Positions 2,745 through 13,465 of a DNA stretch of 13,465 nucleotides are shown piece after piece. The translations under genes were made by a program, and so were the position numbers. Positions within the stretch are counted from its first letter, which is position 1. Each line of letters begins with the position of its first letter. This DNA comes from a virus. The notes under the pieces are model-generated. The model worked only from the letters and a program-made list of their open reading frames with translations, was not told the DNA's origin and did no database searches. Location of the stretch: the UHGV virus genome UHGV-0042147; one strand, 5' to 3'.

Positions 2745-2906
2745 ATGACAAAACGTCGTAAGAAATACCAGGAAAAAGAAGAGATTCGACACCCTGATTC
2801 ACCTGAGGGATTAGTGGTAGCCGCAGCAAATAACAGGGCGTTCGCAGAGCGCCTTGTTGGTGTTTACAGACTAGCCAAAGCAGGAGTGAAACATGGGCGT
2901 CGTTAA
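2745..2906 (+). CDS. Small basic hypothetical protein (53 aa) between cII and O
   Basis: ATG at 2745 with GGAG 5 nt upstream (2736-2739). 53 codons, lysine/arginine-rich N-terminus. The 3' end overlaps the O start by 14 nt. No recognisable family. Confidence 0.35.
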   Translation: MTKRRKKYQEKEEIRHPDSPEGLVVAAANNRAFAERLVGVYRLAKAGVKHGRR

Positions 2907-3811
2907 GTTAGCTGATTACAGGCCTCAACTGGAGGTCGTGGAGCATCGCGTGGCAGAACTCGAAGATGGCTACACTCGGACTGCAAACACACTGTTAGAA
3001 GCCGCCATGCTTTCTGGACTTACTCTACATCAGTTACTGATTGTTATGGCTGTGTGGCGCAAGACATACGGTTACAACAAAAAAATAGATTGGATCGGAA
3101 ACGAACAGTTCGCTGAACTCACTGGCATGGCACCAACCAAATGCTCTACCGCCAAAAACGAGCTTATCAGAATGGGAGTTCTCATTCAGGTGGGGCGTCA
3201 AGTTGGTATGAATACAAACATTTCCGAGTGGAAAACGAAAGTTAACGGATTCGGTAAAACATTTACCAATTCGGTAAAACAAACCTTCACCAAATCGGTA
3301 AAAAGCAATTTACCGAATCAGTCAAACACAAAAGACAATATACAAAAGACAATAAATACAAATACCCCCTTACCCCCCCCCCCNNNNNNNNNNNNNNNNN
3401 NNNNNNNNNNNNNNNNNNNNNNNNNNNNNNNNNNNNNNNNNNNNNNNNNNNNNNNNNNNNNNNNNNNNNNNNNNNNNNNNNNNNNNNNNNNNNNNNNNNN
3501 NNCGCAAGGCAGAACGAATCGACTATGAATCCTTCCTGAACGCCTACAACACCGAAGTCGGTGACAGACTGCCACACGCTGTTGCGGTCAACGAGAAACG
3601 CAAACGTCGCCTGAAGAAAATCATTCCGCAACTGAAAACGCCAAACGTGGACGGTTTCAGAGCGTATGTCAGGGCGTTTGTGCATCAGGCCAAGCCGTTT
3701 TACTTCGGAGACAACGACACTGGCTGGACGGCAGATTTTGATTACCTGCTGAGGGAAGATTCGTTAACGGGAGTACGGGAAGGGAAGTTTGCAGACAGGG
3801 GGATTGCATGA
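2893..3811 (+). CDS. O: Replication initiator O-like protein (iteron-binding N-terminal domain, P22 gene 18-like C-terminal domain), interrupted by an N run
   Basis: N-terminal part (2893-3383) matches the lambda O N-domain pattern (LEDGY.R..N.LLEA...L...Q..I..A..RKTYG.NK..D.I...Q..E.TG......[10 protein letters not shown]). The ori iterons lie inside it. After the N run a 102-codon frame (3503-3811: [39 protein letters not shown]...) ends with TGA 3809-3811, overlapping the helicase ATG at 3808. Frame across the gap cannot be verified. Confidence 0.8.
3249..3318. repeat. Replication origin iterons inside the O gene
   Basis: Direct repeats ATTCGGTAAAAC at 3249-3260 and 3269-3280, a degenerate copy AATCGGTAAAAAG at 3293-3305, and an inverted copy TTTACCGAAT at 3309-3318, at about 20-24 bp spacing. 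Followed by an A/T-rich segment with a 13-bp direct repeat ACAAAAGACAATA (3328-3340, 3342-3354). Same layout as lambda ori. Confidence 0.75.
3384..3502. other. Run of 119 N (unresolved sequence, probable assembly gap) after an 11-C homopolymer
   Basis: N characters at 3384-3502, directly after the C run at 3373-3383. Confidence 0.99.
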
Positions 3812-5184
3812 GACAGGATATCGAAGCGAGCGTTATCGGTGGCTTGCTGATTGGTGGATTAACACCAACCGCCAGCGACGTTCTGGCAACGCTGGAGCCG
3901 GAAGCGTTTTCAATTCCGCTCTACCGGAAAGCCTTCGAAGTTATCCGCAAGCAGGCGAGAAACAGAAACCTAATCGACGCGCTGATGGTTGCCGAGGCGT
4001 GCGGAGAGGAGCATTTCACGTCAATCCTGATGACCAGCAAAAACTGCCCGAGTGCCGCAAACCTGAAGGGATATGCCGGAATGGTCGCGGATAACTATCA
4101 CCGCCGTCTGGTGCTGGAAATCATGGATGAAATGCGTGAACCAATTCAGAGCGGAACCATCGACGCATCGAGTCAGGCGATGGATGAGCTTGTAAAGCGT
4201 CTTTCAGCCATCAGAAAGCCCCGTGACGAGGTTAAACCGGTACGGTTAGGGGAAATCATCACCGACTACACTGACACGCTTGACAGGCGTCTGAGGAACG
4301 GAGAAGAGTCAGATACCCTGAAGACCGGAATCGAAGAACTTGATGCCATCACCGGAGGGATGAACGCGGAAGACCTGGTGATAATCGCTGCTCGTCCTGG
4401 TATGGGGAAAACCGAACTGGCGCTGAAGATTGCCGAAGGCGTTGCAAGCCGCGTTATTCCTGGTTCTGACGTCCGGCGCGGAGTGTTGATTTTCTCGATG
4501 GAAATGAGCGCATTGCAGATTGCAGAGCGAAGCATTGCCAACGCCGGGAGGATGTCGGTTAGCGTACTGCGAAATCCTGCATCGATGGATGACGAAGGCT
4601 GGGCGCGTGTTGCTAACGGCATGAGTCAGCTTGCAGATTTGGATGTATGGGTAGTCGATGCCTCGCGGTTATCGGTAGAAGAAATTCGCTCAATCGCAGA
4701 GCGGCACAAACAGGAAAATCCAAACCTGTCACTCATCATGGCGGATTATCTTGGCCTGATTGAGAAGCCGAAAGCAGACCGCAACGACCTCGCAATTGCT
4801 CACATCTCAGGAAGCCTGAAGGCGATGGCGAAAGACCTGAAAACGCCAGTTATATCCCTAAGTCAGCTTTCGCGCGATGTTGAGAAGCGACCAAATAAAC
4901 GCCCGACAAACGCAGATTTGCGTGATTCAGGAAGCATTGAACAGGACGCAGACTCAATCATCATGCTCTATCGGGAAGCGGTATATGACGAGAACAGTAG
5001 CGCCGCGCCATTTGCTGAAATCATTGTGACGAAAAACCGTTTTGGCTCGCTTGGTACGGTTTACCAGCGGTTCTGCAACGGACACTTTGTTGCATGTGAC
5101 CAGGATGAAGCCAGACAGATTTGCACAGCATCAAATGCACCTGCTGCGCGTGGCAGACGATATGCACAAGGGGCTGACGTATGA
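3808..5184 (+). CDS. Replicative DNA helicase, DnaB family (phage P22 gene 12-like)
   Basis: 458-aa ORF. Walker A ARPGMGKT, Walker B-like [11 protein letters not shown], DnaB C-terminal motifs ([22 protein letters not shown]). Start overlaps the O stop (ATGA). P22 gp12 is also 458 aa. Confidence 0.93.
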
Positions 5185-5264
5185 CCATCTACATCACTGA
5201 GCTGATAGCAGGCCTGCTGGTAATCGCAGGCCTTTTTATTTGGGGGAGGGTAAATCGTGGCTGA
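5181..5264 (+). CDS. Tiny hydrophobic peptide (27 aa), putative
   Basis: ATG 5181 overlaps the helicase stop (ATGA). Encodes [27 protein letters not shown] with one hydrophobic helix. Too short to support without other evidence. Confidence 0.3.
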
Positions 5265-12293: not shown

Positions 12294-12719
12294 ATGGCGA
12301 CTGAGAAAAAGAACGTCGGTCGCCCTTCGGATTACCTGCCGGAGGTGGCTGATGATATCTGTGCGCTGCTTGCCTCCGGGGAAAGTCTGGTTAAGGTTTG
12401 CAAGCGCCCCGGCATGCCAGCAAAGGCTACTGTATTTCGCTGGCTGTCAGAGCATGACGAATTTAGAGACAAGTACGCGAAGGCAACTGAGGCACGAGCT
12501 GATTCTATTTTCGAAGAGATATTCGAAATTGCTGACAATGCGATTCCAGATGCTGCTGAGGTGGCAAAGGCAAGACTTCGCGTTGATACCCGCAAATGGG
12601 CGCTGGCCCGAATGAATCCACGTAAGTATGGCGACAAGGTAACTAATGAGCTTGTCGGCAAAGACGGCGGCGCAATCCAGATTGAAACATCACCGATGAG
12701 CACTCTATTCGGAAAATGA
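12294..12719 (+). CDS. Terminase small subunit (TerS)
   Basis: 141 aa. N-terminal [26 protein letters not shown]...TVFRWL is the HTH pattern of a common phage small-terminase family. ATGA overlap with the large subunit. Not lambda Nu1. Confidence 0.8.
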
Positions 12720-13438
12720 CCTCGATTAATCCTATCTTTGAACCGTTCATTGAGGCGCATCGCTACAAAGTCGCCAAAGGCGGTCGAGGTAGCGGTAAAT
12801 CATGGGCAATTGCGAGGCTGCTTGTTGAAGCGGCGCGTCGGCAGCCGGTGCGCATCCTCTGTGCTCGTGAACTGCAAAACAGTATCAGTGATTCGGTAAT
12901 CCGGCTGCTTGAAGATACCATCGAGCGTGAAGGGTATTCAGCTGAGTTTGAAATTCAGCGTTCAATGATTCGTCATCTCGGAACGAATGCTGAATTCATG
13001 TTCTACGGCATCAAAAACAACCCGACGAAGATTAAATCGCTCGAAGGTATTGATATCTGCTGGGTGGAAGAAGCGGAAGCGGTAACGAAGGAATCATGGG
13101 ATATCCTGATCCCAACCATCCGCAAGCCATTTTCCGAAATATGGGTGAGCTTCAACCCGAAAAACATCCTCGACGATACCTATCAGCGATTCGTAGTAAA
13201 CCCTCCCGATGATATTTGTCTGCTGACGGTGAACTACACCGACAACCCGCACTTTCCTGAAGTTCTCCGTCTGGAGATGGAAGAGTGTAAACGCAGAAAC
13301 CCGACACTGTATCGTCACATCTGGCTTGGTGAGCCAGTAAGCGCAAGTGATATGGCAATCATCAAACGTGAATGGCTTGAAGCTGCAACTGATGCGCACA
13401 AGCAACTCGGATGGAAAGCGAAGGGTGCGGTTGTTTGA
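12716..13438 (+). CDS. Terminase large subunit, ATPase domain only (240 aa; truncated, split or frameshifted)
   Basis: Walker [10 protein letters not shown], Walker B/catalytic Glu in ICWVEEAEA, coupling motif SFNP. The ORF stops at 13436-13438 after about 240 aa with no nuclease domain. The window ends 27 nt later. Confidence 0.8.
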
Positions 13439-13465
13439 AGTGGTCAACAAAAACTGGCCACCGAG

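Follow-up and report, generated by a model that had tools for sequence, protein, structure and literature searches.

The window, a stretch of 13,465 nucleotides of viral DNA (UHGV virus genome UHGV-0042147), contained the early-right operon of a lambdoid prophage. The genes were ordered cI, Cro, CII, a gp53/orf48 homologue, the initiator O, a helicase, NinB, Dam, an antirepressor, RusA, Q, holin, endolysin, Rz and terminase. The LexA-like cI was located on the minus strand (1299-2012), the lambda operators OL1-3 were found exactly at 56-116, and a lambda OR operator was present at 2046-2062. Over positions 1299-2313, identity to lambda was 98.7% for cI and 100% for cro; cI was also 99.6% identical to that of HK97, indicating the same immunity as HK97. 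The minus strand further encoded BstA, an abortive-infection defence protein of 301 aa (307-1212; PADLOC BstA, E = 1.3e-105; 42% identity to BstA of BTP1), with cI on one side and the lambda-type OL/PL region on the other, which is the slot held by rexAB in lambda. At the right end, the terminase large-subunit ORF (12716-13465 region) stopped after 240 aa at 13438, and positions 13437-13465 (TGAAGTGGTCAACAAAAACTGGCCACCGAG, ∼29 nt) corresponded to the end of an IS3-like element of the ISEc52 family, so that the window ended in a repeat. Because the end of this element truncates the terminase ORF, the prophage is probably defective for packaging. When the whole window was compared with complete E. 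coli genomes, no match covered 80% or more of its length.

The replication genes were preceded by a small plus-strand ORF of 53 aa (2745-2906), a homologue of HK97 gp53 and P22 orf48 (phrog_1331, E = 1.4e-37), which overlapped the start of O by 14 nt. Both the position and the overlap were those of HK97 gp53, and DNA identity to HK97 in this region was 100%. The conserved 33-nt 5′ motif of pO/oop described previously (PMC3349717) was present exactly (ACTGGATCaATCcACAGGAGTaATTATGaCAAA, 2720-2752), overlapping the start of this ORF, and no Rfam family was found at gathering thresholds anywhere in the window, including at this motif.

The initiator gene O, of the P22 gene 18/HK97 gene 54 type, extended over 2893-3811 on the plus strand and was 99.4% identical to intact 831-nt genes annotated as “replication protein” in complete E. 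coli genomes. The ATG at 2893 opened a frame that ran into a run of C, interrupted further on by a run of N. At its 3′ end, the O stop codon (TGA, 3809-3811) and the helicase start codon (ATG at 3808) overlapped as ATGA at 3808-3811, confirming the coupling described in the initial annotation; an equal overlap was found in HK97, P22, BTP1 and ten further loci. The helicase gene (3808-5184, plus strand) was a 458-codon ORF encoding a replicative helicase of the DnaB family, of the HK97 P/gp55 and P22 gp12 type, with a DnaB N-terminal domain (PF00772, E = 4.5e-13), a DnaB_C domain (PF03796, E = 9.5e-78) and a Walker A motif, ARPGMGKT, that could be read from the DNA. The protein shared 99.6% of its residues with HK97 P and 90.4% with P22 gp12, while blastp against lambda P yielded only fragments with E > 3. 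The ORFs that followed encoded small proteins and NinB, with no lambda P-type gene among them. The Pfam domains and the lack of a significant blastp match to lambda P bore out the earlier assignment of the downstream partner as a DnaB-family helicase rather than a lambda P-type loader.

Pfam analysis of the O protein, repaired as described below, revealed a Phage_rep_O origin-binding domain (PF04492) at aa 19-113 (2947-3231, plus strand), which was of the P22 gp18 allele type. The match covered the full profile (1-95/95) with E = 4.2e-36 and a score of 123.8 bits (cut-off, 28.7 bits), in agreement with the lambda-O-like N domain proposed from the sequence. Downstream of this domain, still within the gene, lay the origin repeats. 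The string TCGGTAAAA, occurring three times in the window (3251, 3271, and 3295), proved to be one half of an imperfect palindrome of 17 bp, which was found four times at 3242-3325, on both strands, and nowhere else in the window when up to three mismatches were allowed. The chance expectation was 0.05 matches, and none of 200 dinucleotide-preserving shuffles reached eight. Iteron 1 (TTAACGGATTCGGTAAA, 3242-3258), iteron 3 (TTCACCAAATCGGTAAA, 3286-3302) and iteron 4 (TTTACCGAATCAGTCAA, 3309-3325) were identical to those of the P22 ori, and iteron 2 (TTTACCAATTCGGTAAA, 3262-3278) differed from its P22 counterpart (TTTACCAGATCGGTAAA) at two bases. The iterons started 349, 369, 393, and 416 nt from the O start codon, compared with 348, 368, 392, and 415 nt in lambda, and the lambda-like layout that had been noticed at the outset was therefore accurate to within 1 nt. 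Directly 3′ of the iterons was an A-rich tract (3326-3366, plus strand), the presumed DNA-unwinding element, with 76% A+T (63% A on the plus strand) versus 52% A+T for the window. P22, BTP1, and HK97 had an identical tract, and the AT-rich tract of the lambda ori was similar. Since the iterons are also translated, the O linker is forced to contain a repeated peptide (window positions 3254-3320); the differing iterons of HK97 yield another linker repeat (LTLAKTANKTLAKSANGYKPSQ).

Alignment upheld the observation that the iteron sequence is unlike that of lambda, and it was also unlike that of HK97. The distinct origin specificity drawn from this difference did not hold, as three of the four iterons were identical to those of the annotated P22 rep_origin and the remaining one differed at only two bases. 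On iteron sequence and N domain, the window is assigned to the P22 ori specificity class. Together with the lambda operators, cI and cro, the P22-type iterons indicate that the prophage combines lambda/HK97 immunity with P22-type origin specificity.

Comparison of the window with HK97 and P22 in 40-nt sliding DNA windows resolved the module into a mosaic. The segment from 2720 to about 2950 was HK97-like (95–100% DNA identity), that from about 2960 to 3320 was P22-like (88–97%, with HK97 at merely 40–68%), positions 3320-3377 were common to all, and 3503-5200 was again HK97-like (90–100%). Protein alignment gave the same picture: O residues 1-10 equaled HK97 O, and the N domain and iteron-coding segment past residue 10 equaled P22 gp18 with about five substitutions. 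The C-terminal, helicase-partner domain (residues 176-276; encoded within 3503-3811, plus strand) was the HK97 allele: it matched HK97 O at 101/101 aa, whereas its identity was 59% to P22 gp18 and 18% to lambda O.

The architecture itself has several known counterparts. In P22 (NC_002371), gene 18 with an internal rep_origin (32840-32984) is followed by gene 12, with the same ATGA-type coupling; the four repeats of ∼20 bp in gene 18 are unlike those of lambda, and gp12 is a DnaB-type helicase (PMC8022706). P22 resembled the window in the N-domain and iteron DNA, the AT-rich tract and the helicase, and differed in the first 10 codons of O, the C domain and the two bases of iteron 2. HK97, with its gp53-O(gp54)-P(gp55) order, shared with the window the gp53 homologue, O codons 1-10, the C domain and the helicase, whereas its O N domain was only 50% identical and its iterons were of the TTAGCTAA type, so that its origin specificity differs. 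In its GenBank annotation, HK97 O is already described as “similar to Bacteriophage P22 Gp18” and P as “similar to DnaB”. The same join of a P22-type N domain and iterons to an HK97-type C domain and helicase was found in o/p of the Lederbergvirus BTP1, which differed from the window in its P22-type first 10 codons, a DNA identity of about 95%, and the absence of a gap. It was also found, again with no gap, in a prophage of E. coli AF14 (NZ_OZ546925, 3800955-3803158). The AF14 O protein was identical to the repaired window protein at 276/276 residues, 12 of which had been filled into the gap from AF14 itself, and the DNA identity was 99.4% over the 800 sequenced bases.

The initial annotation had regarded the module as a hybrid, in which a lambda-type O and ori of new specificity were coupled to a P22-type helicase. 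The layout of N domain, iterons and AT-rich tract does equal that of lambda, the Phage_rep_O domain is 41% identical between the two, and the partner is a helicase instead of lambda P. However, the N domain and iterons are those of P22, and P22 gene 18 itself has this architecture. The O C domain is of the HK97/P22 type and unrelated to that of lambda, as is the iteron sequence, and lambda encodes a P loader that hijacks host DnaB, whereas this module supplies its own helicase. Moreover, the annotations of HK97, P22, and BTP1 show exactly this arrangement, and hundreds of genomes contain it. The protein alignment, the iteron alignment and the survey of loci sharing the joint (see below) refuted this view, to which we attach a negligible probability.

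The O gene was interrupted by 11 C at 3373-3383, followed by 119 N at 3384-3502, exactly as first recorded. The window had no other N run and no other homopolymer of such size. As written, O had a length of 919 nt, which leaves a remainder of 1 when divided by three, and its two halves were out of frame. Because of the C run and the N gap, the intactness of O had been considered beyond judgement. Alignment to relatives allows it to be judged. The left arm aligned to the O gene of AF14 (831 nt; locus L001, 6001-6831) over 2893-3377, that is, to the fifth C, and the right arm over 3503-3811, with 37 nt between the arms in AF14 (TAACAGGGGCGGCGATGGGCAGGTTAAACCTGAACGT). In another relative (L131, with an O of 276 aa), the left arm was identical at 485/485 positions, the bridge was again 37 nt, and the C-terminal 103 aa were identical. 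The joints of HK97, P22, and BTP1 had the same C5-TTA-C5-TAA structure, and all relatives examined carried 37 nt at the gap, in frame.

Accordingly, positions 3368-3377 (plus strand; …CCCCCTTACCCCC) were taken as the genuine end of the left arm, at the conserved joint of P22/HK97-type O genes, where alignment to relatives stops. The six extra C at 3378-3383 were absent from relatives, and together with the 119-N scaffold gap (3384-3502) they stand for 37 nt, namely TAACAGGGGCGGCGATGGGCAGGTTAAACCTGAACGT or a near variant. The halves seem out of frame only because 125 filler positions occupy the place of 37, an excess of 88 that is not a multiple of three. With the gap bases taken from a relative, 485 + 37 + 309 gives 831 nt, i.e., 276 codons plus stop, in frame and with no internal stop; position 3503 is then the first base of a codon, and the frame runs to the TGA at 3809-3811. 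The predicted reading over the joint in this strain is …ACCCCCTTACCCCCTAAC(A/G)GGGGCGGCGATGGGCAGGTTAAACCTGAACGTCGCAAGG…, and O is most probably intact, with 276 codons, as far as the gap bases can be supplied from relatives. The “proline-rich linker” of the initial annotation was a product of translating the C run, as relatives have just PLPP there.

Two kinds of search addressed the C run itself. An extended tract of 8 or more C gave 0 matches in the GTDB species representatives and in IMG/VR, and when 3310-3383 was compared with 443 E. coli and 98 phage records, matches ended at 3377, except for a single record at 3378. The normal joint (CCCCCTTACCCCCTAA) was found in at least 120 viral contigs. 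As the extended tract was absent from the searched collections, the six extra C were read as probable contig-end junk beside an estimated scaffold gap. Long G/C homopolymers can degrade short-read assemblies, and a different reading would be that the C tract is genuine and exceeds that of all other known copies, forming a hypermutable homopolymer in the linker, at which slippage renders O phase-variable and failing reads broke the contig. Eleven C are indeed present in the window, and extending the normal C5 by six bases would insert two prolines with no change of frame. If true, a slippage-prone O linker would switch the replication initiator of the prophage on and off. Yet no record in GTDB species representatives, IMG/VR, or the 443 E. 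coli and 98 phage records had more than six C at this otherwise extremely conserved site, and the tract directly abuts the N gap, where contig-end junk is expected, which leaves this reading very improbable. A small inverted repeat that relatives have at the joint (CCCCC-TAAC-GGGG) was also considered as a hairpin. Its folding energy of −4.4 kcal/mol (z = 0.97) was equalled or bettered by 168 of 200 shuffles and was therefore no different from chance.

The length of the gap could likewise be taken at face value, with the 125 positions representing the true length of a concealed insertion or rearrangement that disrupts O as part of a decaying replication module. The out-of-frame halves and the other damage to the prophage, in which the IS3-like element end truncates the terminase ORF, would agree with such decay. 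On the other hand, lengths of scaffold N runs are estimates, both flanks match intact relatives up to the edges of the gap with no IS end or divergent sequence, and exactly 37 nt were found there in all relatives examined; this possibility was likewise considered very improbable. If the N run were a 1:1 mask of real sequence, the segment would exceed that of every relative by 88 nt and would not be in frame, and this was judged less likely than an estimated gap.

An estimated scaffold gap was the preferred interpretation, and draft-like features were apparent elsewhere. The right end of the window lies 29 nt into the ISEc52-family element. In addition, at least one complete E. coli chromosome (CP042246.1) carries two prophages with identical O and helicase and different immunity regions, at 1.585 Mb (L129) and 3.404 Mb (L130). 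Two prophages with an identical helicase module in one genome constitute a repeat that would break an assembly at the shared joint. Both observations, the IS end at the window edge and the duplicated helicase modules in one genome, fit a short-read draft assembly. The gap sits exactly at the conserved joint between the cassette of N domain and ori and that of C domain and helicase.

The O region was matched by 715 E. coli records, of which 35 (34 genomes) matched over at least 80% of its length; identity was 98.6–99.4% for the best 25 of the 35. No fewer than 34 complete E. coli genomes had an intact 831-nt O at 99.4% identity and the combination of P22 iterons with an HK97 C domain. Among 123 sampled public loci with the exact joint AATACAAATACCCCCTTACCCCCTAA, HK97-type iterons with an HK97 C domain predominated (79/123), the window's combination of P22-type iterons with an HK97 C domain was found in 27, and P22/P22 in 10. 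The exact joint of the ori was also found in assemblies of Trabulsiella guamensis, Candidatus Erwinia dacicola, and Serratia marcescens (L006, L007, and L008), showing that the origin core has spread well beyond Escherichia and Salmonella.

The assembly index lists the exact helicase protein in 12,421 blocks. In ten loci with an identical helicase, among the matches listed, the gene was always preceded, with the same overlap, by a gene for an intact Phage_rep_O protein, whose length was 273, 276, 295, or 315 aa. In all ten loci listed, the last 103 O residues were identical to those of the window, and the N domains and repeat regions fell into three types. The constancy of the C-terminal 103 aa beside an identical helicase, with N domains that vary, implies that the C domain and helicase travel together and that the N domain and origin form an exchangeable cassette. 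Such co-inheritance would be expected if the C domain is the helicase-contact surface, as suggested by the genetics of lambda O-P and P22 18-12. The third type of O N domain (295 or 315 aa; L129, L130, L136, and L138, with O genes ending at 3004) was joined to the identical C domain and helicase. It had a His/Ala-rich repeated peptide (…AHEAAQTTAHDAAHDEA…) where iterons should be, and did not carry the exact CCCCCTTACCCCC string, although the protein of L136 and L138 still read NNTPLPPNGGG at the joint.

By analogy with lambda and P22, the N-terminal Phage_rep_O domain would bind as dimers to the four iterons within its own gene, and the adjoining A-rich tract would melt. The C-terminal domain of O would then recruit the phage's own hexameric DnaB-type helicase (P/gp12), which is translationally coupled to O through the ATGA overlap. 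With a DnaB-type helicase of its own recruited, the phage would need no lambda-P-type loader, and host DnaB would be dispensable as well. Binding, melting and helicase recruitment are inferred here from the biology of these two phages. The putative dispensability of host DnaB and of a P-type loader is consistent with the laboratory hybrid lambda cI857(18,12)P22, or lambda hy106, in which lambda immunity is combined with a P22-type orf48-18-12 block, as in the window. Replication of lambda hy106 is independent of the P-DnaB interaction, and a dnaB-GrpD55 host, which blocks lambda, permits the growth of this phage (PMC3349717). The window differs from lambda hy106 in being a natural prophage with HK97 alleles of the O C domain and helicase.

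We are thus highly confident that 2893-5184 is a standard P22/HK97-like lambdoid module of O and DnaB-type helicase, with the ori specificity of P22 and the C domain and helicase of HK97, in which the 11 C and 119 N are filler for 37 nt. The combination of P22 iterons with an HK97 C domain is already known and widespread in nature, and beyond correct annotation the module is of little consequence. What looks like a break in O is a scaffold gap, which comparison with relatives can close with 37 nt, and neither a pseudogene nor a frameshift should be recorded there. The gap falls on the AT-rich/C5TTAC5 joint, where lambdoid phages exchange cassettes of N domain and ori and of C domain and helicase, and it is at such shared joints that short-read assemblies tend to break in genomes with several prophages.
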